The notes beneath the pieces were generated by a model. The model was not told the origin of the DNA. It ran no database searches and saw nothing but the letters and a program-made list of their open reading frames with translations. Below are positions 4,010-60,812 of a stretch of 64,000 bases of DNA, piece by piece. Made by a program: the position numbers and the translations under genes. Origin of the DNA: Fistulifera solaris (lineage: Eukaryota); assembly GCA_030295235.1 (NCBI GenBank), contig AP026130.1, positions 1,364,001 to 1,428,000 on the forward strand, given 5' to 3'. Each line of letters begins with the position of its first letter. Within the stretch, counting starts at the first letter, position 1.

Positions 4010-4108
4010 GTTTTAAACCGTTAAAGGTTAAACAGCGGATGAATTCGTACTATTGTGATTTAGAACGTTGTGCAAAACGGTTGACATATATTTGATGTTA
4101 TTCTTTAA

Positions 4109-7258: not shown

Positions 7259-7272
7259 GGGTTCTAGCCTAA
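6255..7272 (+). CDS. Alpha-carbonic anhydrase, secreted version without anchor (disrupted in this assembly)
   Basis: Same CA motifs (QFHVHASSEHTIEG..EAELHVVH); C-terminus ETIVDSAPIWVLA then TAA at 7270-7272; several indels and in-frame TAA at 6695-6697. Confidence 0.82.
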
Positions 7273-7574
7273 TTTTTAAACTTGATTTCTATACACAAAT
7301 ATCTTCAATATTTTCATACAGCTTTCTCCTCGTAATTACTCCCTCTAGTTTGTCGTGCTTGGCATCTTGCCTTGAAGGAAAACTGTTTGTTTTTTATTTT
7401 ATTAAAAAGTGCACCAGCTAGTTTCGGTGGCCGGGTCAAAGCCCCATGAAAGAAGCTTCATCGTCAGACCTGAATTTTTTATCTTGAGGTCTCGTTTTGT
7501 ATGAACGGATCGAATGAGTTCCTTTAGACTTCGCTTATTGAGTTATTCTCTTTGTTACATACTTCATACTATCT

Positions 7575-9143
7575 TTACACATAATCGCGTTCTTTCTCTG
7601 AATGCATTTTTCCTGGCGGCTCATTACGGATATGCCTGCTTGCTAGCTCACACACAACAGCTCCTGTCAGTGGCTTCTTTATTGCCTCGCTGCTTATCGA
7701 CGATAGCTCTTCCAAGGTTACGTATCGATCGATCTTGGGCCTTATGTATCGCGAGGAAAGCATTTCCAGCAAGTACTTCATATCGGCCCTTACTTGTTCA
7801 CCATTTACGCGAACATGCTCCGCAAAATCGAGCATGGTAGCTCTTTTCATCTTGGATATTTTTAGTTGTTCGACCATTGAACTGATTCCTTGAGCTTCGT
7901 CCTGCTGCTTGGATACACAAACAAGGCGACCGTGCTTAGCTAACGCTTTTCGAAGTGCTTTGAATTTATTAGGAAAGCAATAATCCACCACAATATCAAT
8001 CGATCCCTCTACGACCCATCCCCAATCATCTAGCATATGCACTTGTTGATCCTTCATTTCGCCTTTACCGTGTACAAAGATTTCCTCCACACCCGCCAGT
8101 TTAGCCATGCGTATTAATGCTCGTGATTCTACAGTCAGTCCTCCTGTTATCAAAAGTCTTCTTCCCGTCAGGCAGGTGATGCTGTAGCAATAAGGACGTG
8201 CTCTACCGTGATGCAATGCCGTGAAGGCAGGCAGGTAAGCTGACATCAGACTTGCTACGTCTGACAAATCCACTTGATCTGGCACGGGCCACAATCGATC
8301 CGAAGGTATGGATACAAGTTGCGAATTCACTGTCCACCTGGCAATTGCCGCAACCCGTTTGCCTACCTCCAAGCCGTACTGCTCTGCTAATGCTGCATCA
8401 CATTGCCGAATGACACCGACAAAGTTGGTGCCATACTTTTCACTCGACGATGATGCCGAAAATGAGTCATCAAACGAAGTGAACGCCGTAGCTTCGACGG
8501 CCACAATAACATCTTGATTCGCTGCTATGGTGTCTTCCCGCTCTCCGTGTAAATTGCCGAAAAAGGAGCTCCAATCGCAAAATACACTCGTGCAATCGTG
8601 AGGTTGCGATAGCTCTTGTGTCGGCGCTACATTTTCAAAGACTTCTGGTTCTGGTACAATTTCCTCTGGAAGAACTTCTCGTACGTCTTGTCGTTGCTCA
8701 TCTATTTGTGCCTCTTCTTTTCGTTCTATAATACCGTCATCCTGCTGTTGTTGGTTTTGTTCACGTAGATCTTGTTCTAAATCACAGAGAAACGAGCCCC
8801 AATCACACATCATATTTGTGCAGTCATGTGAGTTTGCGAGATCTTCGTCGACGACCTCCTCTTCCTCAAACTCTTCCGATGAAAGGGAGTCTACATCGTC
8901 GTCGTCGTCCTCTTCCGACGATGACGAGGCAGAGGAGCATGAAGACGAGGAGTATGTCGTTTCACTGTCTGCTCGTGCACGATATCGATAACGCGATGAA
9001 GATGGCTGTGCCGTGACTCGTCGATGCTTGACAATATCTCGCTCATCGTAAGAATTGGATCGATCAAAGGATGAATAGTTTTCTTCTCCGTAATTTCTCC
9101 CTGACCTGTTGCTGAGCGTGTAATGATTCTGTCGTGACGGCAT
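7575..9143 (-). CDS. MDR/quinone-oxidoreductase-like protein with long acidic N-terminal extension
   Basis: GTNFVGVI..C...GLEVGKRVAA, VP.QVDLSDVASL...YLPAFTALH, LLITGG, IRPKIDRYVTLEE resemble the GroES + Rossmann MDR fold. Confidence 0.6.
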   Translation of the reverse strand: MPSRQNHYTLSNRSGRNYGEENYSSFDRSNSYDERDIVKHRRVTAQPSSSRYRYRARADSETTYSSSSCSSASSSSEEDDDDDVDSLSSEEFEEEEVVDEDLANSHDCTNMMCDWGSFLCDLEQDLREQNQQQQDDGIIERKEEAQIDEQRQDVREVLPEEIVPEPEVFENVAPTQELSQPHDCTSVFCDWSSFFGNLHGEREDTIAANQDVIVAVEATAFTSFDDSFSASSSSEKYGTNFVGVIRQCDAALAEQYGLEVGKRVAAIARWTVNSQLVSIPSDRLWPVPDQVDLSDVASLMSAYLPAFTALHHGRARPYCYSITCLTGRRLLITGGLTVESRALIRMAKLAGVEEIFVHGKGEMKDQQVHMLDDWGWVVEGSIDIVVDYCFPNKFKALRKALAKHGRLVCVSKQQDEAQGISSMVEQLKISKMKRATMLDFAEHVRVNGEQVRADMKYLLEMLSSRYIRPKIDRYVTLEELSSISSEAIKKPLTGAVVCELASRHIRNEPPGKMHSEKERDYV

Positions 9144-9591
9144 TTTGGCAGGTTATTGCGTAATAATCGTTCTTGTTATCCCACCAAGTTGTTGCTACCG
9201 GATTACTTCACTGCTTTGAAATCAAATGGATGACTTCTTTGTTCGACGTTTGTTGGTAATGATGATTCTTATGTCTCTTGATGGAACGTTGAGAAATCTT
9301 CCATTATTATGGTGGAGTTTCAAAATTTGAACGTTCCAACGGACGAATTTCGCGGTGGCGTTCGGACACGGAACTCTGCATTTAAGCTATATGCGAAACG
9401 TAAAGATCTCTTAGCGTTAACCTTACAGTGATTCAAGCACGCAACAACATGCAACTCGATCGAAAAATTAAAGACGCGACGACGATGGCGTTCATTACAA
9501 ATCAATGTTCTTCTTTCTTATTACCTGTTGCCGTGTTATAACTCGCAATCAGCTCCCATTCAATACAATAAAGCGCACAGAGTAATACATC

Positions 9592-21539: not shown

Positions 21540-21785
21540 AGTTATGATGTTGACAAGGGCGTCCAAAAACACGCGGAAAATGGTGTCATCAAAATTACAC
21601 AATATCCGGGTTGCCCTCTGTCGATAAATTTCCTTACGAGAGCTACGTGAAAATACGTAGAAATTCGAAGCGATGCAGCATTCGTTCCATCGACGTTTTG
21701 TTTTCAAATCGAAAGCGTTCATTGTTTCCTGATACAAATATGATCAGGTGGACAAGGAACCAATGACACCTGGGCACTGTAAATG
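21540..21785 (-). repeat. Diverged dispersed copy of the 425-bp satellite unit
   Basis: atatccgggttgccctctgtcgataaatttcc, ttttgttttcaaatcgaaagcg and ggacaaggaa match the reverse complement of satellite sequence at 47.8-52.5 kb. Confidence 0.85.
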
Positions 21786-21899
21786 CGACAATTGGACGAT
21801 GGTGAAACACATCGTCAATACCTAGTACAAGTAACCTTACAGAGCACATCATTGCTATTTTGTTTCTATTCCCTTCTTAGACTACGGCAAATTACAATG

Positions 21900-34664: not shown

Positions 34665-35329
34665 AGTTAAGGCTGAATAAAGGAACACTAGATTGTTTAT
34701 TTTTAAATTTGGGTAGTACTTTTTCACTTCGCCACTTCTGTTTTCGACTGACAATTTTCAAACACCGAGTCGGACCAGCTAAGTTTCGATAGCAGTAAAC
34801 AATAGAGCGAATCGTGCTTAAGTCTGCCTCAATCAGCATTCAGTGCTCTCCTGTACGTCTACACTGGCGGGTTGTTGATTGATGAGATCTACGCCTTCAA
34901 TTGCTTTTATCGGGAAGCCCCGGGCTTGGTACACGTGCCGCCGTCCGAAATACCATTGCTCATGGCCACCGTCTTGCTACAAAGCGCCACGAACTACTTT
35001 CAGCTTTCGGCCCTTTTGTTAGCAAATCTCCCGGATGCCTTGCTCGAGCTCATTGATGTTGAGCCTAAGGACGACGCAGGCGGCGGGGACGAGTCGTCTT
35101 TGCAAGCGGAAGATAGTCGGTAATGGCGAGGGAGATTGTAGCTCCAATAGTGATTACTTTTGCAAGTCAACCGCCGAGATCGGTGACATTGCCATTCGAA
35201 AGAAGAGTGATTTGCCAAGCTACAACTTTTCGAGTTCTTGTAAGAAATGCCATTCCCAATGTCTTTAGAAACGATACTTTGTATTATATGATGTAGACTA
35301 TTCTATACAAGATTTATGTGCATCTATTT

Positions 35330-36963
35330 CTATACTGCCACAGGAACGAACTTGACATTTTTGGTAGCGCAGACAGGACAGGTTTCCCCGAGTCCTTCCG
35401 TGACGCAAGCTTCGCAAAACGCGTAATGCATGCAGGGTGCCGCGATGTGAGAGCGCGTACCGAGTCCGCATACTACACAAGGTGGCAGCGCACCGGATTT
35501 CGTGGAGGACATGGTAGACATGTCGTGTGCGATATCGTTATGAGCAGCTTCTTTTGACTTCTTTTCAATGAGACCCGGTGGTCGCTGTTCGAGCGCTCTT
35601 TGCCGCGCCAGATATTCTTGACGCTTCTTCTCGATCCGTTGAAACTCTTCTAGTTCCTTTTGTTGCATTTTCTTTTGCAGTGCACTATCCGATAGTTCCT
35701 CTTGCAAAACTTTCTCCGCCGCATCCGATTTGCTCTGCTTGAAAATCCCCAGGAACGAACTGCGATGTTTCGAGTTAGTTGCACTGTCACTCGTCGTCTT
35801 TTGCTCCGTCGGAACCGTTTTTGACTGGGCCGCTGGAAACATTCGTGACGTAAATCCTGGTTTCGTCCCCGATTCCATTCTTTGCCGTCTTTGATGACGA
35901 TACCATTGTCGTTCCGCTTGCTCTTGTTTGATGACTAAAAGCTTATCTGTCGTCTTTTGGGTTCTCGAAAGGTTTTTCGTTCGTGTGCTTTCAAGCCATC
36001 TTCCGTGAGACGCATGACACCCCGAACCGGGCCATTGACAAGCTCTGCATCTTGAACACCCTTGGGTTGCAACGACTCGGACATTGTCGTAACCGTATCA
36101 TCTTCTTCAGGACCCAGCAGCTTCAGTCCCACTAGCGGACTGAATTCAGATCCCTCACTGCAATAGGATGAATTATCTCGTGCTTTGGGAGTCGTCACAT
36201 GTTCGGGTAATACAAATGGCGCTTTGGGTGATTTGACGTCGGCTCCGAATCGTAATTTTGATGCATTACTTCCGCGCTTGTTGTTGTTTGAGTCTTCCGA
36301 TGCCGTTCGTGGTCTCAGAATACTAGGAAGTGATTTCGAAGATGCCGTGAATGGCTTGACAGGCTCATCCCGTGACGGCTCCGAAAATTGAGCCGAGCGA
36401 GACATTGAAGACGCTTTCGCAGGCGCAGTTGAGTCGTCTTTAATTGAAGCGTAAACATCCCGAAGAGGTTGCTGCTGGTTCTTTTTGGGTGAATCACAAA
36501 CAGGTTCGAAGCGACTGTAGGAACAATTCTTGTGTTCTGTAGGCAGATCATTCGGTTCCGCATTACTATTCTTTGCGTCATCTGCGTCCAGAGAACGCAA
36601 AGGAATGACTTTGTTTCGTTTTTGAGAAGCAGAGGAGGAAGCAGGAGACGGAGAAGGCTTTTCGTTGGGACTATTACCGATTCCCAAGCGCACATTTTGT
36701 TTGTAAGCGTTTAATTGATCTTCGATATCTGTGACATCCAAAAGATTGCGTCCGCTGGCTCTCGTGTTTGCCTCCGAACGTCCCGTACATGTCACTGCAT
36801 CAGGACTTGTGAATATAGATCCAGCTCCGACGGTATCGTCATCTAAAAGTTCAAAAAGACCCTTTCGAGTTGTCGTATTGTTGTGACGATTGTGTTTCTT
36901 CGAACTTTTTCCTTGTGAAGATTCTTTCCCTTTTCGAGATCGACTGCCGTTTTGAAACCACAT
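35330..36963 (-). CDS. Low-complexity protein with C-terminal C3HC4 RING finger
   Basis: CVVC..RSHIAAPCMHYAFCEAC..CPVC; ORFs 35935-36963 and 35330-35878 join if one A is restored near 35957. Confidence 0.78.
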
Positions 36964-37412
36964 AACTATTGTAAATGCTGAGTAGAATGTTAAATATGAT
37001 TATAACAAGGCATTAAGAGAGGTGATGATAAAGAAGAAGAAGTTGAATGATGGAGTTGCACATTCGACCGACGCGAAAGACAAAACGGTGGCCGAAAAAT
37101 CATTCGGTGGTTTTTCACTTTCGCAATGAGGGCAGAAGGAGCATTTTGCGGACAAATTTGTGTCACACAAACAGGCCTAGCACGCCGTCACGGCCGAACG
37201 ACTCAGTTACTATGAAACATTCACAAGTAGACGTTTCCTGTTTAATAGATGTTTGAGTCTTGTTTGCTAAGTAGAAAGGGGTAGAAAACTTGAATCACGA
37301 TAATCTGTGATATCATTGGTCGCCCGCCCCTTCCCAAATAAGAGCACGACTGAGATGACGTGACACAGAAAGTTCCAAATTACTCGGAGTCTCATGTCGC
37401 TCCGGGTCCTCT

Positions 37413-37495
37413 GATATCCGGGTTACCCTCTGTCGATAAATTTCCCTACGGAGCCTACGTGAAATGCACGTAGGCATTCGCAACAGTGCATTATT
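37413..37495 (-). repeat. Short dispersed fragment of the satellite unit
   Basis: gatatccgggttaccctctgtcgataaatttccctacg matches the reverse complement of the satellite core. Confidence 0.8.
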
Positions 37496-37725
37496 CCTTT
37501 TCTCTCTGTTTCTGCACCAAATCAATTTACTAAACCTAGCTTATAGTTGTTGGGAATGGCTAGCAGAAATAATAATATGACTTCATAGTTTGTAAACGCA
37601 TTGATTGGATTATGTAGAATTACACATTATCCGGGTCTCCTTTGATCTGCGCTAACCTTAGTCTACCTGGTCGGCGCGCGGCGGGACGACACGACACCAC
37701 CATCGCACGCTTTTATTTATTTTTT

Positions 37726-40700
37726 GGCAGTTGAACCATGCTGGTGGACCTTTTTGGACCGTACGTCGTCCGATTTACATAGGAAAACGACATGCCAGAG
37801 CGACATTGCCATCCAAATACTTTTTGGATCCAGCCAATCAGATGGCTTACATCCAAAAAGTCGAGCCAATCCAGCCAATCACAAGCGTCCCATCCAAAAG
37901 AGACTTTTAGCCGTCTGCTAGTTTTCCGCGTTGAGCAATCGATAGCCTACCGGTACTCACTGTACAGTAAATCGAGGTTTAACCTTAAGCACTCTCAATG
38001 TAGCTGGCCAAAAGAATGCATCCGTTCCAATTTTTGGCCGATAATTATTTCTGCAAAAGAATGACATCGGCACAAACGAGAATAACTCGTCTCATCTTTT
38101 CGATTGCAAAGTTATCACACGAAAAGAATGCCAGGAACATCAAAAAGAGGTCGGGGCCCCGACAAAGTCCAGCGAAGTCGCTCGTCAAACAAAAAGATTA
38201 GTTTGAAAAGATGGAGCTCGAAAAAGCAAAGAGAAAAGAGCAAGCTAGTGTGGATGCCACGTCCGCTGTAATGCACTCTTTTTTAGGCATAAAGGTTCCC
38301 GAAAAGGCCACCCCTGTAGAAGAAGAAGTCTGTGAAGATGTTGACATGACTGGCGAAGAACTAGAAAAGCAATTTACTGAGCGTCTTGTGATCGATGATA
38401 CAACAGGTCAACCTGGCGACGTCGGCGTCGGCGATGATGACGACGACGCTCTTGGCTTCCGAGGGAAGACGGGGACTATAATGAGGATAGCAATGAGTTG
38501 AACGACGGCCGGCATCATGTCAAATTATCTTTCTAAGATTCAGACGAGGCTGAGAGATGAAACGCGTTGTCACTTCAAAAGGGGAGACGAGAAAATTCCT
38601 GACGATCAGAAATGGCTTCTGAAAATGCTTGAGGAGCACCAGTTCTCTCTTCCGTGGCAGCTTGCTTCAACACTGTGCAACAAGCTTGGGATAAATTCGG
38701 CTCCTTCTGCGTACTATTGCACTGTACATGTGTGGTTACCAGATGTCCAATTCAACAAAATGCCACCTTGCGGAGAATGCAAGTCAAATGCCCATGTTGG
38801 TCGTCATGCATTTGATTCCAGTTATCCTGGGCTGCCGATATCTGGCTTAAAAAAGGACGAGAATGCGTTATGACAATGCGGTATTGTTGTTCGAGGTGCA
38901 AGAGCGGAGAAAAGTCCTACACGTTTCGCGGATACAATCTGAAAAGTTTGGAATTGATGCCGCTTAGTCGAAAGATTTGCTTCCCGGCTCTCTTAACGCA
39001 CAAAAGCGGGGTCACTATGGAGCTAGCTCGACTCGTTCGCTCACTTGTATCGAAAAATGTGCGTTCGAATTCTCTTGCTGCAATAATTGCGGAAATGCAC
39101 CAGCTCGAGCACAAGCAGCAAATGTTGCTCTATGAGTTGGAGGTAGCAGCTTCGCTTCTACCCGAACAGATGACAATAAAGCACCATTGTTTAGCGACTT
39201 CAATGATCGGAAAGGATACAATGGCCGATTGATTACCGGGAAGTACATTCAGAGCATCTATCAACGCCTCATTCACTCCTTCCGGGAACTGGCTGACGAC
39301 ACGAAGAAGAGGGATTCTGAGATGATTAAGATTGACGCATCTTATAAATTCTGAGGCGTTTGAAACGGGTTGGCGGCGAAAGTGTTTGATGGTCTAGTCA
39401 CAGTGATGAATGAATTTAAAGAGATTCGTTCGCATTTTGTAATCTTTGGAGAGAGCCACGACCAGATGCGGCCGCCGCTACAAGCCATGAAGGCGACAAT
39501 GGATTCAAATGGCCAAGCCGGCCCCAAACTTGCTTTCACTGACAGCCCCAAGCGAGACGGCCGACATGCTTATTTCCGTTTTCGATTCCTTGGCAGTAAC
39601 TCAAGAGGCTTATAATACAATTGCAGAGGAGGAAAATAAGCAGCTAGGAGACAAGTCGGAACCCACTGAGTTGCTCAAGTCAGCATGGCAACGTCTTCTC
39701 ACGACCGTCGCTTCCAATCTGTTCGATTAAGCATCATAATTATTCAGTTATTGAGGCTGATAAGGACATTACAATGTTTGCAGGAACCGCCATGGATCTG
39801 ATGAAAGACAGGCAGGCAGAAAAGCGTATCATGGCGCTTGATCTTGAATGGCCGGTCCACTTCAATAACAACGGTCGCATCAAAGGACAGGGAAAAGTTG
39901 CGACCATACAATTGTCATATCACACCTGTCAGGGCAACCTGGATAACGACATTTGTACTACAGTCATTCGCGTTCAACAGACAACAACTAAATTGAATGC
40001 AACACTTGTGCGTCTACTGAGCGAAGACTCTATCCGATTTGTGGGTGTGAATGTTGCTGGTGATGTGACCAAGCTAAAAAAAGATTTCGCCAACATGAAC
40101 AATGTGTCTGTAAACAAGATTGACTTGAGGGTCATGGCAAGGCGTCGTGGTGTTGTGCCACGGAATGGATCGTATAGTCTTGTTGCACTAGTCGAAGCCC
40201 AGCTGAAGGAATCGATGGAAAAGGATCAGAGAATGTCCGATTGGTCGGGTCCACTACAACCAAAACAGCAGGACTATGCCGCCTTAGATGCAATCAAAAG
40301 TCTGCAAGTATACGATTCTCTCGATAAACTGCCAGATTTAACAAGGGAACTTCAGCAAGGAGATTTTAGCTGGAACTAAGGTCACTATTGTTGCAAGTAA
40401 GGGCAGTAAGGCATCCATTCCGACGCCCGGTGCAGAGGGGGAGATACTTTCTCAAAAACAGATCTGGACAGCACCAAAAACATTTACATTCGTTGAAGGC
40501 CGGAAGCAAACCAGGCGGTCAATTTGTACTTGTTCGAATTAAAAGGTTCTGGCGCCGGGCTTGATAATGGATGGTTATAGGAAAGGCAGGAAAGGTGTCT
40601 CGCTGGGAGATTTTGTAAAAACCTTTGCAGATGGCGATTTCGTGATGATGGTTAATCTTTCACAGTTGCGCTCTCAGCACCAGCAGGAATCATCGTCCAG

Positions 40701-42819
40701 CTCATCAGACGCTATCAACCCGAATCCGGTGATCCATACTACAGAGCTCAACGAGGTGAATGCGAGTATAGTGAACGCTGACAACGAAACAGCTACAACG
40801 ACCGGTTTCGCGAGAAGATGATTTGTTTACCCACGATTACATATTTGAACACGAGAATGAAGAAGATATCAGCCCTGATCCTGATTCTACGGATGCTTTT
40901 GACGACTTCTCAGAACTTACCCCTGCTAAAATCCGAGAAATCGATGATATCATAAGGCGCGGTCGATAAGATGGGCCCTCTTACTGCACAGGACGGAGAA
41001 AAATACCTGGATCCGCCGCCGAAATCGATACCGATTTGCTACTCCGCTGTGCTCGGAGACATTATACACGCAATTATGCGAATAAAGGTTCCAGCAAAGC
41101 ACGAATGCCGCAAAGCTTACTCTGCTGCGCTTGTACGAGCGTTTTTAGAATGGGATCCTGAACGGTTAAAAGAGGTCAAAGAAGCATTGGTCAAATTAGG
41201 TGTTTCCGAAAGGAGATAGAGGCACGATTGTACTACAACATACAGTGGTTCGCAGCATGTGTCGGCGAGCCCTTCCTCCGCATCTCCTTTATTGGCGTGT
41301 TCGTGCCGTTCTATCATACTTTGGCGACAAAATCGACAGCGTGTCCAAGAAGCCTCTCTTCGGAAAAAATGAATGGAACAAGGCCAAAAGTCTGCTCTCC
41401 GACATACGGAAAGGATATTATTCCGACCCACCCGGTGTATCATTCTACCGATATAGAGTGGATGGTCGGGGACAAATAATTCGCGACCGGAAAGGATTTG
41501 CGCTTCTTACGTGTACCAGAGGAACAAACGATGTCGAGAACGAACATAGGAATCTCCTTGGGCCGATCGGAAACTCGCCAGTGGGACTTGAAATGATGGA
41601 CTGTCTTTTGACCGATATACGTCTCCGAAGAAACATGATTTCAGCCCGAAAGTACCGACTGAACTTTCCAGACATTCGACATTTTGATCCCTGGTTAGTA
41701 GACGAATTACAGATTCACGGGTAGAAGAGGGTCGCAAAGTACTATTGTACCCGAACTGGATAAACTCATGTGATCTTGCAGAGACCCCGGAACGTTTTGG
41801 TTTCGTCGGTCTTCCCAGATCAGAGCTGACCGACGCAATAAATGAACGCGCTGCAACAATTGAGAACCTTGAGAATTGTGTTATCGAGAAACGTCTTTCG
41901 AAAGACATGCAGTATATAGCCAAATGCATTGGAACAAAATTGCCGTATCAACCTTTTTCGACTGCCGAGGAAATATCGATGTACGCACAACTGCGAATCA
42001 ATGTAACCGAAAATCAACGAATCAAGCCAGATGACCCGAACTTTGAGCTAGCTATTTGTCATGCCATTGTACCCCGTGTCGATGGAATTCGGATTTTTCC
42101 AAAGACGCCCCATTTATGTTCGGCAAATGGAAAAGAGATATCTTGAGAGGAAACGGATAGGCTCAGCCGTGAAGTATGTACAGTGCATTGGACGCACTCA
42201 GTAGTCTGAATGAAGCCACATCTACCATAGCAATCAACGCTTTGTCCGCCTCAAATGCATTGCAGAGCGGTGAACATATCGAAAAGGACGACAGCACCCA
42301 GATGCGAAAACTCTGCCCTCCTATCTTGCTGCCGAGACCAATCTTCGGCGTGAGTGGAAACATGATACAACGGGCGTGAATCTGTACCAATCGCACAGAA
42401 AAGGCAAAGCCGACCCCCAAAACGTGGCCGGTGTGGATAAGAAACCACGTCAAGGAAGACATTGCAAAACTTGTAAGCGTCCACTTGCCCAATGCCCTGC
42501 TGCCGCAGTAAGTAAGTCGGCTAAAAGGGTGTGCACTTACATCGAAAACACAGAAGCACAACAAATATAATCATTAATGGCTGCATGTTAAATAAAAATA
42601 TCGTTTCAATTTTCATTGACGTATTCCTAACACTGGCGGCATTCCTATGATGCAAATCGTGGACTTTACTGAAGGTCCCGTGAGGGTCGCTACCGCACTC
42701 ATCGTGTACATAGAGACTACTATCTCGGAAAGGGATAAAGCATTTTTGCGTCTGAAGTCGCTCGCTCCGCTCGCGACTTTTAAAATTTCCAAATGGTCCA
42801 CCAGCATGGTTCAACTGCC
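37726..42819 (+). mobile_element. DDE DNA transposon, Dada-like (MuDR/IS256-related), 5094 bp
   Basis: Perfect 25-bp TIRs GGCAGTTGAACCATGCTGGTGGACC (37726-37750; reverse complement 42795-42819); flanking direct repeat TATTTTTT (37718-37725, 42820-42827); internal transposase remnants. Confidence 0.88.
38061..42570 (+). pseudogene. Fragmented transposase with inserted DEDDy 3'-5' exonuclease (start approximate)
   Basis: In order: CGEC/CSRC Zn motifs, IKIDASYK (D, 39334), AFTDSP (D, 39541), exonuclease ALDLEW..NVAGD..DYAALD (39774-40379), LGDIIH (DxxH), RGTNDVENEH (E), C-terminal CKTC..C..C; many frameshifts. Confidence 0.8.
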
Positions 42820-42997
42820 TATTTTTTTGTTCCGTGTTCTTTTTGCACAGTTCGCTCTCACGACGATAAGGAAGTGTGAAAGTGATGGTCATTATTGTTA
42901 CAAAGTCTTCATCATTAAACGCATAACTTCTCCCTCGTTTCATTCACTGATCTTCACAGCTCATCTTTCAACTAAAACGAACGAAAGAAATAGGCAA

Positions 42998-44437
42998 ATG
43001 GACGAAAAACTCTTGAATAACCATCTCGAAGGAGACGAGTACTTTTTACAAGAACAACACGGCAATTTGCTTTCCCCGTCGCCTCTTTTGACAGTACGAA
43101 CTGATGTATCTTATCCAAATACACAAGAAAAACCCGCTCGTGCGTATCGCAATCAAGGAGCGGCTTTGTTATTTCTGATGCACATGGCGGTCGTTTTTTA
43201 TTGCGCTTTACAAGGAGGATGGCCCGTCGCCGTCGAACAACGATTGTTGGGTCTTTTGTTCCTCACAGGATGCACGGCTGTCGCTCTTTCGACAATAGCG
43301 TGGTATGCTATGACGCAGTATTCACAACACTTTGTTGTCGTGGCGTTAAGTTCGACTTTTGCGGGGCATTTCTTTGCTGCCGGTGTCTTGATTTATTTTC
43401 GTTGGTGGTCGGGTGTGCTTCTAGCTATCGCATTTGCCGCGGTTACGTTAATTTACTTACGGACTGTATGGGATCGGACGCATGTAGCGGCAGCACAGTT
43501 GCAAGTTGCGCTGCAAGCCATTGAACGTAATAAAGCAGTGCTGTCCCTGACCTATTTCATATTACTTTCACTGCAATTGTGGGTGTTGATATGGCTCATG
43601 GCTTGGCTAGGATTTTATAATTTGACTTATGGAGAAAACTGTTCGGATAATAATGACAACGACGATCAAGGCTATTACTGCATAGTTCGATTGGGAGGAC
43701 ATGGTGGTGTTCTATTTTTCTTTTGGCTGTCTTTTTTCTGGACGACTCAAGTCCTCCGCAACGTGTTGCGTGTGACCGTAGCAGGTGTGGTGGGCTCTTT
43801 TGTCTGTCGTCCCGAATATCCAGCGGTAGGGGAAGCGTTTCGGCATGCAACGACGTCTTCCTTTGGTTCAATATGCTTCGGAAGTCTTCTGACGGCATTA
43901 ATTCAAGCGTTGTATCAAATTTGCCGCATGCTTCAGAGGACGTCATCTTCCTCATCAGGAAACTTTCTCGTTTGCATCGTCGACTGTATTGTGGGGTTTT
44001 TAGAGCGACTAACGGTTTACTTCCACAAATGGAGTTACATCTACATTGGCCTTTATGGGGACGACTACTTAACCGCAGGACAGAATGTGCTGCAACTTTT
44101 TCGGGAACGTGGTTGGGATACGATCATTACCGATCAACTCGTTGTAAGAACGCTGCAGTTGTTTGCGACAATGGTAGGCGTTAGTACAGGTGCAGTTGCA
44201 CTGTTGATGGGGCCGTCTTTGCATTGGTCGAAACTTGTTACATTTGCTATACCGGCGCTACTGGGAGGAACTCTGTCTTACATTTTATTTCTCAGTGTCG
44301 TCGGAGCGGCTGTAGACTCCATCATAGTTCTCTTTGCGGAAGCGCCGCTCGAACTCGAGCGAAATCATCCAGGGCTCTATCGGCAGATGGTAACAGCTTG
44401 GTCCCAGCTGTATCCCGACGAATTCCGTGCCCCCTGA
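42998..44437 (+). CDS. Choline transporter-like (CTL/SLC44/PNS1) membrane protein
   Basis: SFFWTTQV, ATTSSFGSICFGSL, YFHKWSYIYIGLYG, LFRERGW, IIVLFAEAP; likely ATG at 42998 (the ORF track's 5' extension runs into the transposon). Confidence 0.88.
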   Translation: MDEKLLNNHLEGDEYFLQEQHGNLLSPSPLLTVRTDVSYPNTQEKPARAYRNQGAALLFLMHMAVVFYCALQGGWPVAVEQRLLGLLFLTGCTAVALSTIAWYAMTQYSQHFVVVALSSTFAGHFFAAGVLIYFRWWSGVLLAIAFAAVTLIYLRTVWDRTHVAAAQLQVALQAIERNKAVLSLTYFILLSLQLWVLIWLMAWLGFYNLTYGENCSDNNDNDDQGYYCIVRLGGHGGVLFFFWLSFFWTTQVLRNVLRVTVAGVVGSFVCRPEYPAVGEAFRHATTSSFGSICFGSLLTALIQALYQICRMLQRTSSSSSGNFLVCIVDCIVGFLERLTVYFHKWSYIYIGLYGDDYLTAGQNVLQLFRERGWDTIITDQLVVRTLQLFATMVGVSTGAVALLMGPSLHWSKLVTFAIPALLGGTLSYILFLSVVGAAVDSIIVLFAEAPLELERNHPGLYRQMVTAWSQLYPDEFRAP

Positions 44438-44703
44438 ATGCATCAAACAAGGTTGGATATAATGTAAAATTATATTGTCTACAACAATCGTTGCAATTGA
44501 AGACTCCGTTCATCATATCTTGCTTCTCCCGTCGAAAAGTACTAGCGAAGGAAAATGTACTTGCTAACAGTTCATCCACGACACAACTCTAGTAGGCACA
44601 AAATGTTGAAGTTTCGATTCGGCAGGAAATTGCGGTTATACTTTGTTATATTTCCCAACCTTGAATTGTTTTAGCAACGAATCTCTAATCATTGATGCAA
44701 TCT

Positions 44704-47355
44704 TTATTGTCGTTTCTTCAGCTCGACATCTATATTGTGACGAATGAGACCCAAGTCGGCACTGACCATTGCCCACCACGCCGCTATGGTGGTGCATAAG
44801 ACTAAGATCGGTGGGAAACCGAAAAGGTTTCTTTGACCGTCTAATTCTTCGACATGTAGCAAGTCCAATGTCTTGTTCAAGAAAGATACGAGGAAAGCGG
44901 CACTTCCACCGCCCCAACGATTTGCTAGTGTGTCCACGATAGGCTTTGCCTCATACCGTGCTTCGTTCGACAGCCCTCGCCATAACGATTCTCGAACAGG
45001 TTTTGCAACGGCCATGTTCATCACTTTACAGAACTCGTCAACAATCAGGAACATGTACAGATTGGGCGGTTTTCCATTGTACGCATTGTGCCACCAAGCT
45101 AGATAAAGCGCCCCCGCAAGACGTGCCATGGGCATCAGCGATAGCGTTCCCCTCGGGCCAAACGTGGCAGCAACAAAAGAGCCTGCACCTGTAGCTTGTA
45201 ATACAAAAATAGCCACGGAAGACGCCATGTTTATATTTGCTAAGAAAGCTGTGTCTTCTTGAACACTGCTTTCTTTTGTACGACCTGCAACAAGCTCAGC
45301 GCGCTGAAAACTGAGGAGCACGTTGGTGCTCGCATAAAGCGCATTATAGGTGAAGATTGCCATCAATAGCCGCGAGCGAAGAATCGTTTTAGCTCCTCGT
45401 AAAAGGCGTTGTGAGAACGTATTGTCCTCAAGGTCATTAGAGTTGTTTTGTGAGTGATTGGATGAAAGGTCAGAAGCGGACTTTACCCGTGCAATGGAAT
45501 TCCCGGACGCAACGCGTTTCATGGTGCCTAGCGACGACGATCTCTTCATACTGGAATCTAGGGATGTCAGGTCGTTGTTCGATTGGAACAACTGTTGTTC
45601 TTCCCAGTGTTTCTGCATTACTCGACCTAATTCTATTGATAATTCAGCTGATACCTCGAGCAAGGCTGCCGATATCAACAATAGACCGGACAGTCTGAGA
45701 AGCTTGGCGAAAATAGACGTCACGAAGCTGTAATAAGCAACGGAATTGTAAGATTGAGACAGTACTGGATACTCCAAATCGTCAACAAATACGTTTTCTC
45801 ACCTTCCTAGAATGCCACCCACCGTTCCACCAAAACTGACAAGCGCCATTCTTTGAAGCCGCGTTTTAGTCTGTTCCACCACTGTCTTCTTTTGTGCAAC
45901 TTCCTCATATTCCATGGCTTCCGTAGTAACGCCCCACATTAACGAAATAGAGTGCAGCTTCATCAAGTGCACAATGAGGAAGAAGGCTACATACATTGCA
46001 AGTGCCAGAGTCTGCAACACCGGAACCGGAAGATTATTTAATACAGGTCTCATCCATGCATTTATTTTACCACGGTTCTCTCCGTTCGAATCTAGCAGAT
46101 GCATTAATTCAAATACAGCGGCATACGAAACCAGAACGAAAGCAAAGCAACGGTAAAATAGCGCGAGCGAGGTTCCTTGCGTTTCTCCACGAGTCAGTCC
46201 CATTTTCTTCCATAATCTCCGACGAGACGGATCTGGTGCTTCAAACAACCATCCAATTGGCACGGAACTGCAAAATGCCATAAGCATACTTAATAATGTC
46301 AGTTTCGGAACGTGGGCGACACCTATTTGCAGAGCAATAGCATCTCGCATTGGAGTCAGCACATGATTGGCACAGGTGACATGTAAAAGAGCCCAAAAGC
46401 CGATCCAAGTAGCGGTGGTGAATGGTGTATAGTGTAGCCGTAACAAGTATTTCGAGAGTGTTGCATAAAGATATGTTGACTTGTACTGCGGGATGAAAGC
46501 AGCAGAGTCATCCTCTTTCTTTCTTCGAAGAGGACTGTTTGGTTTGAGTTTCGTTGCTTCTTCTATCCTCTCCGCTTCTTGAAGCAGGGCCTGCATATTG
46601 TCCCAGCTTTTGATGGTTGGCGGTAGCGGTAGTTGCGTTTTCTCTGCTGCTTTTGCCAGGCGCTTATGATGGTCGCTGTCTCCTTCTTCAGTGAGATCCT
46701 TTTCTTCGGCAATGATGCTGGGTTGTCGGGCATGTTGACGATGTAATTGTAGCTGTTGCTTAAGCCAAGTATCTGTTTCGCTTTCGACCGCAGAAGAAGA
46801 TAATAACTGGGGTTGAGAAGGCGGCATTGAAGTTGATGATGCATTTTGAGTTCGTAAAATCGATCTTTCCATCTCTAATGGAAAAGGGAGGAAAGAAGAT
46901 GAGGAAGATAACTCCATTTCTTCCATTTTGCGTCGAAGCTCATCGTCCTGATTGTCGAATGATGACGTCTGATTCGATTCGAAAAGCGACGCATGCTCTC
47001 CGGTCGACTCTGAGCAATTCCTGGCAACATCATCGGAAGTGTATGTAATTGTTGTATCTGCAACAGGCGAATTTATAGTTTCATTCACTAGCGAACTCTC
47101 TTGCGCGCGCTCATTAGAGACAGTATTGTCAGGAGTAATTTTAATGAGCACCGTGTCGCGAATTAATTCCAGAGCAGTTAGTTCCTCATTCTCTGTGACT
47201 TTAGAGCACGTTTGATGTTCCACATTATCTTTTATGCGAGTCTCATCGTTTGCAATTGTGCTGTGGTGAAACGCCGGATTTTCCGGGGAAATGCTGCCCG
47301 ATGTCGCGGTCGTCCATTCCTCTTCGTCGCTTGTTTTTTGCGTCGTGTCTACCAT
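44704..47355 (-). CDS. TLC/NTT-like (ATP/ADP translocase family) MFS transporter with long acidic N-terminus
   Basis: LTPMRDA, GGTVGGILGS, KPVRESLW..LSNEARYEAKPIVDT..NRWG; intron 45728-45802. Confidence 0.72.
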
Positions 47356-47790: not shown

Positions 47791-50700
47791 TACGTAGCCG
47801 CCGTGGGAAATTTATCTCTGTAGGGGTACCCGGAGATTGTGTTTTCCGACATCACACAATTACTGGATTTCCAGTGCACAGATGTCAACGTTTCCTTGTC
47901 CAACATATTTGCTTCGTATCGAGAAGCAATAATCGCTTTCGATTTGAAAACAAAATGTTGATGGAACGATTGATGCAACGCTTCGAATGTCTACGTGATA
48001 TCACGTAGCTCTCGTAGGGAAATTTATCGACAGAGGGAAAACCCGGATATTGCGCAATTTTGATGACACGATTTTCCGCGTCTTTTGGACACCCATGTCA
48101 CCAATACTTTGCCCATTATCGCTTATGCGTGCCATGAAACATTCATCGACCTTGATCTGACAGCGATACATGAAACAATAAAAGGATACAACGCTTCCAA
48201 TGTCTACGCGTAATGTACGTAGCAGCCGTGGGAAATTTATCTCTGTAGGGGTACCCGGATATTGTGTTTTCCGACATCACACAATTACTGGATTTCCAGT
48301 GCACAGATGTCAACGTTTCCTTGTCCAACATATATGCTTCGTATCGAGAAGCAATAATCGCTTTCGATTTGAAAACAAAATGTTGATGGAACGATTGATG
48401 CAACGCTTCGAATGTCTACGTGATATCACGTAGCTCTCGTAGGGAAATTTATCGACAGAGGGAAAACCCGGATATTGCGCAATTTTGATGACACGATTTT
48501 CCGCGTCTTTTGGACACCCATGTCACCAATACTTTGCCGATTCTCGCTTATGCGTGCCATTTAACATTCATCGTTTTTGATCTGACAGCGATACATGAAA
48601 CAATAAAAGGATACAACGCTTCCAATGTCTACGCGTAATGTACGTAGGAGCCGTGGGAAATTTATCTCTGTAGGGGTACCCGGATATTGTGTTTTCCGAC
48701 ATCACACAATTACTGGATTTCCAGTGCACAGATGTCAACGTTTCCTTGTCCAACATATATGCTTCGTATCGAGAAGCAATAATCGCTTTCGATTTGAAAA
48801 CAAAATGTTGATGGAACGATTGATGCAACGCTTCGAATGTCTACGTGATATCACGTAGCTCTCGTAGGGAAATTTATCGACAGAGGGAAAACCCGGATAT
48901 CGCGCAATTTTGATGACACGATTTTCCGCGTTTTTGGACACCCATGTCACCAATACTTTGCCCATTCTCGCTTATGCGTGCCATTAAACATCCATCGTTT
49001 TTGATCTGACAGCGATACATGAAACAATATAAGGATACAACGCTTCCAATGTCTACGCGTAATGTACGTAGGAGCCGTGGGAAATTTATCTCTGTGGGTC
49101 GATCTTATCGAAATTTTTTCTGGCCATCTGGCCAGCCATTTCTCCACATGGCCGTCGAAATGGCTCGATGCGTTTTACCGGAAAATTTTTGCCGGCCACA
49201 AGCCATCTGAACAGTTTCTATACGACATCGTAATGACTAAGTAAAGATTTTCGTTTTTACCTTACAATTGCTTTGGAAATCAAGACACATTCTCATCGAA
49301 AGACGTCGACCTACATATGTTGATATGAAACTCATTTTGATGTCTTATAAATCATAAATACTCTCTTGTAATCAAGAATCAATCAAGCTGCATGATGAAG
49401 GGGTATGTCGCAGGAGCGAAGAGCGACCCGTTAGCGGGAACGACGAAAAGAAGCATGTAAATTATCGACGAGATCAATATGTTTATTGCGAATCAGTTGC
49501 GGTGGCATTGAACGAGGAACTTTACTCTTGCGTATCGTAGGAAGGAACACTTAGAGTCAATATTCATGTCTTATTTTTGGCTTTTCATTTATCGGACAGA
49601 GCTGTGAGCGACACCTAATCCTCCGTGAGGAGAGCGCGGTACTTTTATATGTCGGCTTATATCGCCGACGCTGACTTTATGCCCTCAATCTTCATTAATC
49701 TATTCGATAAAAATACTACCTCGAATACTTGTTATAATATGTAGTCACACAAAGTGCTTCGTGAGCGCAATATCAAAGCAGAATACTAGAACTTCCATCT
49801 TGATCGCTTTGCGATTTAATCACTAGAAATCTTGCAAGCAATCTTACAGTAAAGTAACTAGCTAGATCTTGCAGCTAGATCTTGCAATCGCGCCCCTTTC
49901 CCACATGAGGCATACGAACGACGCAAGCTCTATCCAGTTAAGTCAACAGTAGAGGCTGAGAAATAGTTTAGCTTTGCAAAAGAATATCTTGTCAAAATCT
50001 CAGGACCATTACTCTTCAGAACCAATAGCACATGTATAACGAAGCATCTGGCACAATATCGAAGAGCCCGAGATGATAGGAAGCTCCATTTCATCGTTTT
50101 TTCGCCTAAAATAGGCGAAAATAATCGAAGTTTTGAAAAACGCGGCGGCGTCACAATCCATCATTTCTTTGACGGCCAGATCAGATTGAGCGTCATAGCC
50201 GGAACCAGTAGTGAGATCCTTGTTGCAATGTTTACATCACAGAGAGAAAGGCTAACACTTGGCTCTGTTGGCGGCTGTCTAATTTATGGTCGGCCGGCGA
50301 AAAAGATTCCATCGTCGTCGTTGATTGCGCTTTTTATTCTCCCGCCCCCGCTTCCTCTTGTACGACGGACATGCCTTCTACATGTAGCTGCATATTTATC
50401 TGTATCTTTTTTCGATCACTGGTATGAGAAAGATTTCATAATTCTCAGAAGAAACAAGTTGACGGTAGACCAAGAGCTCTTTTGATCCTCCGCTTGAGCG
50501 CCTTAAAGCGCGTATCGCAAAGCCACTGACTCCATGGGATCCAACACACTTTAAAAGTATGCTTCTGAGCCTTATTGATGGATATACATGCAGAAGCGAT
50601 GAAAAAAGTTGAATAATGATAACGGTCTGCAGGAGATACGAGACCAAAAGACGGTTGTTTGTCGGGAATAATATGGGCAGGAAGACGCAGTCTTTTCCCG

Positions 50701-52518
50701 ATTGCTCCCTATAACGGATAGAACATTTGTAAAGCAAAATTCTGGCGGAAGATTCATTGATCGAAACATTTGATGACAATGGTAACAAATGGTCGTGTTG
50801 AAAAAGATGAAAAATCTTGAAATGGCCGCATGGATGCGAGATGGCCGAGAAAATGGACATGTCCAAAATCTCGTCCATGTGGCTCGGCAGAAATGACCGG
50901 AACGGTTGAGAACAGACGATTTTTGGTGGCTAGTGGCCAGATGGCCGGGGTTTTTTGTCCGACAAGATCGACCCTGTAGGGGTACCCGGAGATTGTGTTT
51001 TCCGACATCACACAATTACTGGATTTCCAGTGCACAGATGTCAACGTTTCCTTGTCCAACGTATTTGCTTCGTATCGGAAAGCATTAATCGCCTTCGACT
51101 TGAAAACAAAATGTTGATGGAACGATTGATGCAACGCTTCGAATGTCTACGTGATATCACGTAGCTCTCGTAGGGAAATTTATCGACAGAGGGAAAACCC
51201 GGATATCGCGCAATTTTGATGACACGATTTTCCGCGTTTTTGGACACCCATGTCACCAATACTTTGCCCATTCTCGCTTATGCGTGCCATGAAACATCCA
51301 TCGTTTTTGATCTGACAGCGATACATGAAACAATAAAAGGATAAAAACGCTTCCAATGTCTACGCGTAATGTACGTAGCAGCCGTGGGAAATTTATCTCT
51401 GTAGGGGTACCCGGATATTGTGTTTTCCGACATCACACAATTACTGGATTTCCAGTGCACAGATGTCAACGTTTCCTTGTCCAACATATATGCTTCGTAT
51501 CGAGAAGCAATAATCGCTTTCGATTTGAAAACAAAATGTTGATGGAACGATTGATGCAACGCTTCGAATGTCTACGTACTTTCACGTAGCTCTCATAGGG
51601 AAATTTATCGACAGAGGGTAAATCCGGATATTGCGCAATTTTGATGACACGATTTTCCGCGTTTTTGGACACCCATGTCACCAATACTTTGCCCATTATC
51701 GCTTATGCGTGCCATGAAACATTCATCGACCTTGATCTGACAGCGATACATGAAACAATATAAGGATACAACGCTTCCAATGTCTACGCGTAATGTACGT
51801 AGCAGCCGTGGGAAATTTATCTCTGTAGGGGTACCCGGAGATTGTGTTTTCCGACATCACACAATTACTGGATTTCCAGTGCACAGATGTCAACGTTTCC
51901 TTGTCCAACATATATGCTTCGTATCGAGAAGCAATAATCGCCTTCGACTTGAAAACAAAATGTTGATGGAACGATTGATGCAACGCTTCGAATGTCTACG
52001 TGATATCACGTAGCTCTCGTAGGGAAATTTATCGACAGAGGGAAAACCCGGATATCGCGCAATTTTGATGACACGATTTTCCGCGTTTTTGGACACCCAT
52101 GTCACCAATACTTTGCCCATTCTCGCTTATGCGTGCCATGAAACATCCATCGTTTTTGATCTGACAGCGATACATGAAACAATAAAAGGATAAAAACGCT
52201 TCCAATGTCTACGCGTAATGTACGTAGCAGCCGTGGGAAATTTATCTCTGTAGGGGTACCCGGATATTGTGTTTTCCGACATCACACAATTACTGGATTT
52301 CCAGTGCACAGATGTCAACGTTTCCTTGTCCAACATATATGCTTCGTATCGAGAAGCAATAATCGCTTTCGATTTGAAAACAAAATGTTGATGGAACGAT
52401 TGATGCAACGCTTCGAATGTCTACGTACTTTCACGTAGCTCTCATAGGGAAATTTATCGACAGAGGGAAAACCCGGATATCGCGCAATTTTGATGACACG
52501 ATTTTCCGCGTTTTTTGG
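47791..52518. repeat. 425-bp tandem satellite, ~6.7 units, interrupted by a TIR element
   Basis: tacgtag..gccgtgggaaatttatctctgt recurs at ~47791, 48216, 48641, 49066, 51371, 51796, 52221. Confidence 0.97.
49096..50974. mobile_element. Non-autonomous TIR DNA transposon, 1879 bp, 3-bp TSD (PIF/Harbinger-like)
   Basis: Ends GGGTCGATCTTATCG / CGACAAGATCGACCC, shared subterminal GGCCATCTGGCCA; TSD TGT (49093-49095, 50975-50977) verified against uninterrupted units (atctctgtaggggtacc). Confidence 0.88.
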
Positions 52519-52740
52519 ATGTTTTGAAGTAGTTATCAACTTTGACTTGCGGAAGGTTTGAATAGCAGCACCAGTTAAATGCACTTTTATTTGTCGATTG
52601 AAAGGACCAGCAATGTAACAGAACTACTTATCATAGCCACGTTGCAAAATAATTCGTAGCTAATAGTAAAATTATTGACCTAAGTGTTGGCAGTGTACAG
52701 GGGCAAGACGAGCCGGAGAAGGCGTCTTCTCGGTGTATGT

Positions 52741-60180: not shown

Positions 60181-60267
60181 ATAGGGTATAGGCAAATAGT
60201 AATGATTAAAACACAGATCCCAAATATCTGAAATGCCCACAATATCTCCGTTAAATACAAAAAAAAC

Positions 60268-60812
60268 GATTCCAGAATTTTTGGAACGACTGCAGTATCT
60301 TGTTATGACCCAAACTTACGATTCCAGAATTTCTGGAACAACCACAGAAATTCGGTGAGACCCAAAACAATGATATTGATTTTGATATTCCAGAATTTTT
60401 CTGGAATGACCCAAGAATCTCCGTTAGGTACCATATACCATATAACGATTCCTTCCAGAATATCTGGAACGACTAAAGAATCTTGGATGTCCCAAACTTA
60501 CATTTCCAGAATATCTGGAACGACTGCAGTATCTTGTTATGACCCAAACTTACGATTCCAGAATTTCTGGAACAACAACAGAATCTCGGTTTGACCCAAA
60601 ACGATGATTTCAGAATTTCTGGACTGACCCAAGAATCTTTGTTAGGTACCAAAAACCGATTCCAGAATATCTGGAACGACTACAGAATCTTGGTATATCC
60701 ATACTTACGATTCCAGAATTTCTGGAACAACCACAGAATCTCGGTTTGACCCAAAACAATGATTTCAGAATTTCTGGAAATGATCACAAACTTTCCGTTT
60801 GACCCAAACTAA
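60268..60812. repeat. 52-bp minisatellite, 10 units, palindromic core TTCCAGAATTTCTGGAA
   Basis: Core variants at 60270, 60322, 60388, 60453, 60504, 60556, 60608, 60660, 60711, 60763. Confidence 0.92.

Follow-up and report, generated by a model that had tools for sequence, protein, structure and literature searches.

The locus and the ends of the element

We analyzed a 64,000-nucleotide (nt) stretch of the genome of the diatom Fistulifera solaris (contig AP026130.1, positions 1,364,001 to 1,428,000 of the forward strand; hereafter the window), in which a transposon copy of 5,094 bp occupies positions 37726-42819. The copy sits at an AT-rich site in the intergenic region that separates a minus-strand RING-finger gene from a gene resembling choline transporters (Pfam match, E 6.4e-56); the ATG of the latter is 178 bp away from the right end of the element. 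Its own gene carries the motifs of a DDE transposase and, in the midst of them, a WRN-like DEDDy exonuclease (Table 1). Our combined findings suggest, with a probability of roughly 0.85, that the region is one copy of a Dada-superfamily transposon, from a subgroup in which such an exonuclease follows the second catalytic Asp and precedes the DxxH motif. The design itself is already known, including from a stramenopile: it was described in 2013 for a brown alga and a mushroom (PMC3706591; here and below, statements on published papers refer to the parts of them that were available), and the architecture that an earlier note, made from the letters of this DNA, had reported is thus not new.

The element is bounded by terminal inverted repeats (TIRs) of 29 nt that are 97% complementary. 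Their outer 25 nt match exactly, as had been read before, and a search with these 25 nt found a single TIR pair within the window (two sites, versus none in 100 shuffles). Immediately outside both TIRs stands the 8-bp direct repeat TATTTTTT. The earlier note had also considered a duplication of 9 bp, with a T lost on the left, and had proposed looking for an allele without the element. Such an empty site was found in the metagenome run X2, where a 1,503-nt contig joins 37000-37717 to 42820 with a single TATTTTTT. The contig skips 5,102 bases, the length of the element plus one repeat (5,094 + 8), and eight letters fit on either side of the joint; the target-site duplication (TSD) is therefore 8 bp long, not 9. 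Contigs from a second run, X1, span both junctions (37416-37751 and 42790-43214) with zero differences from the window and so provide an independent view of both the insertion and the left T-run length.

The site is thus empty in a near-identical environmental genome, whose flanks differ from the window by 2 + 3 letters over 718 + 437 bases (5/1,155). The insertion is accordingly recent, as the perfect TIRs had already led the earlier note to propose. The interior of the element is covered by no contig from X2, which is no evidence that the X2 organism lacks the family, and the left end has no look-alike stretch in the indexed sequence collection.

No small-RNA gene marks the target, in agreement with what had been noticed from the flanks: there are no Rfam matches at E<=1 in 35000-45500 and no tRNA genes in the whole window (ARAGORN). 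Insertion into small-RNA genes is a hallmark of Dada elements, and the target of the window copy argues that this specificity is not universal among them.

Table 1 Annotated parts of the transposon copy and its immediate flanks, in window coordinates
Feature	Position	Strand	Basis or remark
Left target-site duplication TATTTTTT	37718-37725		direct reading and X2 empty-site contig
Left TIR	37726-37754	+	terminal GGC 37726-37728; conserved core TGCTGGTGGA 37739-37748
CCAGCCAATCA, two copies, 5' subterminal region	37830-37840, 37871-37881	+	direct reading
Transposase coding region	38129-42570	+	likely ATG 38129 (MPGTSKRG..., resembles the N-terminus of the relative P0002); stop 42568-42570
N-terminal zinc finger, CxxC...CxxC	PPCGECKS 38763-38786, YCCSRCKS 38882-38905	+	inside a weak DUF6729 match
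First catalytic Asp	KIDASYKF 39328-39351, D 39334-39336	+	invariant D393 of alignment A1
Second catalytic Asp	AFTDSPKRD 39532-39558, D 39541-39543	+	invariant D463 of A1
WRN-like DEDDy 3'-5' exonuclease domain	39825-40328	+	frame uninterrupted; Pfam PF01612
Exonuclease motifs	ALDLEWP (DxE) 39834-39854, VAGDVTKL (D) 40053-40076, YAALDAIK (YxxxD) 40275-40298	+	all present
DxxH	LGDIIHAI 41052-41075, D 41058-41060, H 41067-41069	+	D971 and H974 invariant in A1
Catalytic Glu	TNDVENEH 41524-41547, E 41536-41538	+	E1132 and H1135 invariant in A1
C-terminal Cys cluster (HCKTCKRPLAQC ... VCTY)	42460-42546	+	motif reading and conservation in alignments A1 and A2
Right TIR	42791-42819	-	core 42797-42806; terminal GCC 42817-42819 (+ strand)
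Right target-site duplication TATTTTTT	42820-42827		direct reading and X2 empty-site contig

The two CCAGCCAATCA copies near the left end are possible promoter elements of the CCAAT type or possible transposase sites.

A transposase with an exonuclease in its core

The motifs on the plus strand follow one another in the order CxxC..CxxC, D, D, exonuclease, DxxH, E and Cys knuckle, spread over different frames, and the D..D..DxxH..E order reported earlier was found complete. In an alignment of 17 relatives (A1), the two Asp, the DxE, D and YxxxD of the exonuclease, the DxxH, the Glu and the zinc-finger Cys are all invariant or nearly so. Within the N-terminal finger, C247 and C250 show no exception and C208 hardly any. 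The C-terminal cluster has the spacing C-x2-C-x6-C-x12-C with no conserved His between; A1 shows C1445, C1455 and C1468 to be nearly invariant, and C1448 does not vary in a smaller alignment (A2). The exonuclease is contained in an open reading frame (ORF; 39648-40379) that matches the Pfam family DNA_pol_A_exo1 (E 2.7e-11) and holds the DLE, D and YxxxD residues that had been pointed out.

Relatives of the protein are numerous. A 174-residue query around the catalytic Glu retrieved 905 representative proteins at E<=1e-3 from 1.84 billion searched, of which 361 reached <=1e-10 and 52 reached <=1e-30; many are 1,400-1,740 residues long and encoded on contigs of ~5-7 kb. The named ones include a Skeletonema protein, a Zychaea protein, an MMETSP transcript and sequences from two mushrooms, Arthromyces and Mycena (mushroom relatives at E 1.6e-23 to 2e-17). 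As a lead, the ESM Atlas contains fungal clusters with DUF6729 and the exonuclease and a chordate cluster with DUF6729 only. With relatives this numerous, and with mushrooms and Mucoromycota among the named ones, the idea of a distinct diatom lineage is not supported. One full-length relative, P0095 (1,548 amino acids), bears the source name 'ribosomal protein S27AE', presumably a mislabel derived from its C-terminal zinc ribbon.

The exonuclease is found in frame and at the same position in the long single ORFs of relatives at 25-57% identity. In a Pfam scan of 13 relatives (E<=0.01), its family was present in 12, and DUF6729 together with the exonuclease in 10; a literature search for DUF6729 found no paper. 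The joint conservation of the exonuclease residues and the DDE residues argues that the exonuclease is an integral part of the enzyme and not a nested gene.

An AlphaFold2 model of P0001, the F. solaris relative described below, was built with 29 aligned relatives and reached a mean pLDDT (predicted local distance difference test score) of 74.4. The best match in the PDB is the WRN exonuclease, both with the family profile (E 1.1e-24) and with the model (Z 24.3). A PDB sequence search with the profile of A2 returned exonucleases only and no transposase, and Foldseek with the whole model likewise returned exonucleases only (WRN, 3.8e-10). The likeness to the WRN exonuclease (PDB 2e6l, 2fbt) and to EXD2, Mut-7 and Nibbler lies in the fold and the DEDDy residues, with 183 of 186 residues aligned. 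In those proteins the domain is attached to a helicase or stands alone, whereas here it is embedded in the catalytic core of a transposase. Among 48,161 PDB representatives, the best match of the model outside the exonucleases was the ISCth4 transposase of the IS256 family (6xg8_A; Z 12.1, root-mean-square deviation 3.8, 274 of 401 residues). It covers residues 209-1155 of the model, spanning the exonuclease insertion, and is followed by the Rous sarcoma virus (RSV) integrase (Z 10.3). As far as the model goes, the ISCth4 match shows a resemblance in fold, not membership of IS256.

In the model, three parts lie between the strand of the second Asp and a short strand that precedes the DxxH: the exonuclease, a domain rich in beta structure (~724-822) and a linker without order. 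The beta-rich domain, which corresponds to window positions ~40380-40680, directly follows the exonuclease, is conserved and well predicted, and is itself followed by the linker, which is acidic. It matches no Pfam family and no structural match to it was listed.

Dada elements are defined by a DxxH-containing DDE transposase, zinc fingers at its N-terminus (CCCC) and C-terminus (CCHC), duplications of 6-7 bp and insertion into small nuclear RNA (snRNA) or tRNA genes, with DxxH being common to Dada, MULE and hAT (PMC3706591). Three of them, Dada-1_ES from Ectocarpus siliculosus and Dada-1_LB and Dada-2_LB from Laccaria bicolor, were described by Kojima and Jurka in 2013 as carrying a DEDDy exonuclease that is inserted after the second D and ahead of DxxH (PMC3706591). 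The window element shares with these three the DDE residues and DxxH, the DEDDy insertion with all catalytic residues, the N-terminal four-Cys finger and the C-terminal Cys-rich knuckle. Its last exonuclease block is, by eye in Fig. S1 of that paper, closer to Dada-1_LB than to WRN, its 5.1 kb lie inside the published range of 4,666-10,979 bp, and it starts with GGC, as does Dada-U1A_DR (Fig. S3; PMC3706591). The assignment to Dada made in the earlier note is therefore supported by protein features that are present here and conserved in relatives, with the exception of the C-terminal His, which is not conserved.

Several observations weigh against this assignment. The duplication of the window copy is 8 bp long and AT-rich, unlike the 6-7 bp of Dada, and its target is an intergenic promoter tract without a small-RNA gene. 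Dada-U6 has no TIRs, whereas the window element has TIRs of 25-29 nt, and the C-terminal cluster reads C-C-C-C here as opposed to C-C-H-C in Dada-U6_DR. The DUF6729 match of the window protein (E 3.9e-4, 20.5 bits) is below the Pfam cut-off of 27. The Z of 12.1 for ISCth4 lies below the level that is safe for partly helical matches, and a Z near 12 can reflect a common arrangement. The link to Dada is one of architecture, a figure compared by eye and the shared Pfam family DUF6729, with the mushroom relatives as further indirect evidence. Several of the frameshifts treated below fall in short homopolymers, so that some of the breaks in the gene may be artefacts. The relatives also differ from Dada in having single ORFs without evident introns, since all Dada elements except those of Perkinsus have introns (PMC3706591).

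If the assignment is correct, the exonuclease-bearing Dada elements gain exact ends, TIRs, a proven 8-bp duplication with its empty site and a target that is not an RNA gene. We found none of these in the available parts of the cited papers; in particular, for the families with an exonuclease, the available part of PMC3706591 gave neither termini nor a duplication or target. Among the matches listed in a literature search, no title dealt with Dada elements in diatoms.

Ends and junctions of relatives

We looked for the ends of relatives in 79 metagenome loci found from alignment A2. A generic inverted-repeat search of 31 of the relatives' loci gave no convincing TIRs, and the ends emerged through a shared core motif. 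The terminal signature of the relatives is GGC, followed by 10 nt and TG[CG]TGGTGGA, the window form of this core being TGCTGGTGGA. A relaxed version of the terminal pattern gave 31 hits in the 79 loci versus 2.55 per shuffle. Within one family, copies diverge in their flanks exactly from the GGC outward (L006/L007/L009 and L035/L038/L039), and a more distant family (L027, L028, L030) likewise begins with GGC. For L011 and L016 no left end was found, and for L006-L009 no right end. This signature lets the ends of distant relatives be located, and it exposed a junction of fixed spacing in six independent environmental families.

When we scanned for abutted ends, right before left, with spacers of 0-20 nt, six junctions appeared, all with exactly 6 nt (6/6; shuffles gave 2 hits in 20 rounds). 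They lie in six different metagenome records, at L004:2946, L009:30, L012:3283, L020:2819, L026:5212 and L036:1594, and their bridges are unrelated in sequence (AGGCAT, GCTTTT, AATGAA, CGCCAC, CAAAGG and CCTCGA). Three of the records have a further feature. In L026, two units are 100% identical over 4,661 nt on a contig of 10,490 nt (2 x 5,218 + 54); L004 has a terminal overlap of 98 nt; and L012 holds roughly one unit in circularly permuted form. Going by the contig sequences, features of this kind are typical of a template that is circular or repeated in tandem. A right end at position 4464 of L022 could mark a seventh junction, on a contig that stops too soon to tell. Families that bear junctions also contain solo insertions (L006 and L007 versus L009; L018 and L024 versus L020).

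No clean TSD was found among the relatives. An internally shortened relative of 3.76 kb occurs at two sites (L038:12-3771 and L039:112-3866), with 99.5% identity over 3,760 nt and both ends present, and the only repeats in its flanks are offset and imperfect, with 1-3 additional bases, e.g., CAAGGCAGG-C|...|TA-CAAGGTAGG. These offset repeats might be related to the carry-over of flanking DNA in fish Dada elements.

A tRNA gene was found in one of 41 loci of relatives, a tRNA-Trp in L030, ~520 nt from the nearest element end. This locus holds, at 2524-9481, two copies of a distant relative that are 99.6% alike with a period of 3,899 nt, the first of them truncated, and the tRNA-Trp (5829-5901) sits between the two, ~520 nt from the GGC terminus of the second copy. 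We considered this tRNA gene as an insertion target and rejected it, as it is not at an element end.

A possible route of transposition

We envisage that the transposase would recognize the TGCTGGTGGA block at positions 14-23 of each end, cleave at the terminal GGC/GCC and integrate by strand transfer with an 8-bp stagger, for which it would employ the D, D, E triad and DxxH, a chemistry that we infer to be of the IS256/MULE type. The built-in exonuclease may trim a 3' end made in the reaction, on the donor flank, the junction spacer or a flap. That it could process ends or the donor site had been proposed in the earlier note, and the same inference was drawn by the authors of the 2013 study, in whose words it 'likely process[es] the cleaved 3' ends' (PMC3706591).

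Plain cut-and-paste in the manner of MULE and hAT, with hairpins formed on the flanks, has about an even chance of being the actual route; the 6-nt junctions would then be second insertions adjacent to a first one and sharing a 6-bp duplication with it, or they would be assembly products. A published precedent favors it, namely a Dada-U1B/U1A tandem with the 6-bp GCGAAT between the two copies that was read as a shared TSD (PMC3706591). The empty site at our locus is compatible with any mechanism. We also counted for cut-and-paste that MULEs, eukaryotic relatives of IS256, reportedly resemble hAT and Transib in mechanism, to judge by the title of work by Liu and Wessler from 2017. Against this stands the lack of any shared target sequence among the six spacers and the solo flanks, which makes repeated hits on one and the same 6-bp site improbable unless there is target specificity. 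Furthermore, the one clean duplication of the family, that of the window copy, is 8 bp long and not 6, and the identical units of L026 and the overlap of L004 point to an assembly graph with a closed cycle.

A more tentative possibility is that the exonuclease-bearing Dada elements, and perhaps all Dada elements, move by an IS256-like route, in which abutted ends with a 6-bp bridge are formed and then integrated with an 8-bp duplication. One end would attack at a point precisely 6 nt beyond the other end, giving rise to a circle or a tandem dimer, and the exonuclease would act on the nicked donor or on the bridge. In ISCth4 and IS256, according to Kosek et al., duplications are 8 bp with a preference for A/T-rich DNA, circle junctions have spacers of 5-8 bp and integration is best with a 6-bp spacer (PMC7780238). 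Going by the model, the C/DxxH in an insertion domain and an RNase H core fold are shared with these; the window copy has an A/T-rich 8-bp duplication, and the 6-bp spacer of the circle junction can be likened to the fixed 6-nt spacer between the abutted ends of the six relatives. The AT-rich 8-bp duplication, the fixed bridges in relatives and the ISCth4-like fold make us lean, tentatively, toward the IS256-like route. There are also differences: ISCth4 is a bacterial protein of 47 kDa without exonuclease or zinc fingers, the Pfam family Transposase_mut was not matched in the 13 relatives of the window protein, and copy-out/paste-in has been shown for ISCth4, whereas for the family of the window element it is hypothesized only. 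An IS3/IS256-like circle has been suggested for KolobokP (PMC9587614); we found no such suggestion for Dada in the available parts of the cited papers.

Were the IS256-like route to hold, Dada would be a eukaryotic DDE lineage with intermediates of the copy-out/paste-in type, and some published observations would be read differently. The '6-bp TSD' between tandem Dada-U1 copies would be the trace of a junction bridge and not a duplication; in the same study, apparent 8-bp duplications of Dada-U1 and Dada-tIA_PMar were re-read as 6 bp (PMC3706591). A foreign 6-bp flank often travels with the fish elements Dada-tA and Dada-tY, which 'may not always generate TSDs' (Kojima 2022, PMC8869645); this flank, too, would be a bridge trace. 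The junctions and the ISCth4-like fold make it possible to test for a bacterial copy-out/paste-in mechanism in a eukaryotic DDE transposon and for the role of an exonuclease borne by a transposase.

A broken transposase gene

The transposase gene of the window copy is broken by ~19 frame changes, and its exonuclease domain alone is uninterrupted. The description of an intact exonuclease in the earlier note thus stands for the exonuclease ORF, which is open, and does not extend to the transposase frame around it. Two relatives used in tblastn split the gene into 9 and 13 pieces in alternating frames. A frameshift-aware alignment to residues 1-1172 of P0001 revealed 15 frameshift events, with no stop once the frames were followed, and the C-terminal part has at least 4 further frame changes, from tblastn pieces against P0002. 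P0001 is recorded at NCBI as 'hypothetical protein FisN_19Lh006 [Fistulifera solaris]'; it shares 98% identity with the window exonuclease ORF and reads through most of the window frameshifts, and its gene model ends early near 41712, at one of them.

The X1 contigs from the interior of the element have the P0001 version at every listed non-synonymous site. Their listed differences from the window comprise 9 synonymous and 22 non-synonymous changes, giving no sign of selection between the two copies. The window indels are of several kinds, some in homopolymers, some of 3 nt and in frame, and some complex. At two positions the window keeps residues that are conserved in the family, an Arg (41302) and a Tyr (41419), where P0001 has Cys and Phe, which argues that the window copy is a true paralog and not merely a miscalled master copy.

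It is nevertheless conceivable, and in our view rather unlikely, that the copy is truly intact and autonomous, the ~19 frame changes being consensus errors in a repeat whose true sequence is the master variant of X1 and P0001. The interior is covered in X1 solely by two contigs with the P0001 variant, at a word depth of ~50, and X1 has no contig with the interior variant of the window, while the X1 junction contigs, which match the window exactly, have depths of 12-22. The indels that lengthen or shorten short homopolymers at 38205, 38460, 38463 and 38509, and the high ratio of indels to substitutions (62 gap letters versus 64 other letters over the two interior contigs), would also fit such errors. 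However, ~1,400 flanking bases show no difference from X1 and a neighboring gene of 479 codons is open, so that the errors would have to be confined to the repeat. Errors would also not yield the two sites at which the window residue is conserved in the family and that of the master copy is derived. In-frame 3-nt indels are found among the differences (at 38036 and 39296), rare variants are dropped from contigs and word depth does not equal copy number, and the P0001 gene model itself terminates prematurely near 41712, where the window has a frameshift.

If the gene is indeed broken, the window copy would be unable to make its own enzyme, and it may have been mobilized in trans or have decayed after insertion. 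It would then rely on enzyme from intact-looking copies.

Comparison with MULE and hAT elements

MuDR and other MULEs share with the window element a DDE core with C/DxxH and are related to IS256. The window element is set apart from them by its short TIRs, its exonuclease insertion and zinc fingers that are not of the SWIM type. None of the MULE, hAT (including its dimerization domain) or Transposase_mut families in Pfam was matched by the 13 relatives at E<=0.01, the sole related hit being ZSWIM1-3_RNaseH-like in one protein (E 0.0088). The earlier note had named a grouping with ordinary MULEs and a nested exonuclease as outcomes that would undo its reading. An ordinary MULE or hAT element with an unrelated nested exonuclease gene is very improbable: a duplication of 8 bp is typical of hAT and lies at the low end of the MULE range, and DxxH is common to both, but the exonuclease keeps its in-frame position and its invariant residues across relatives alongside the DDE residues, no second repeat pair or duplication surrounds it, and the Pfam results speak against both groups.

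Surroundings of the element

Other features of the window were noted in passing. A 425-bp tandem repeat forms two arrays (47818-49098 and 50974-52547) with 7 copies in total that are 87-100% alike, and fragments of it are dispersed at 21566-21811 and 37414-37473. The latter fragment, 250 bp to the left of the transposon, has a word depth of ~480 in X1 and ~440 in X2; depths this high indicate that it is part of an abundant repeat family. In the neighboring gene region, 43249-43600, X1 contains two contig versions, one identical to the window and the other showing 31 differences over 352 bases, which is what one would expect were the organism to carry two diverged genome copies. Toward the right end of the window, at 60219-60779, there is an array of ~52-nt tandem repeats that are 62-100% alike. 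Toward its left end, at 4657-7258, lies a large near-perfect palindrome of ~2.6 kb, with nested inverted-repeat arms of 172-316 nt that are 99-100% complementary.

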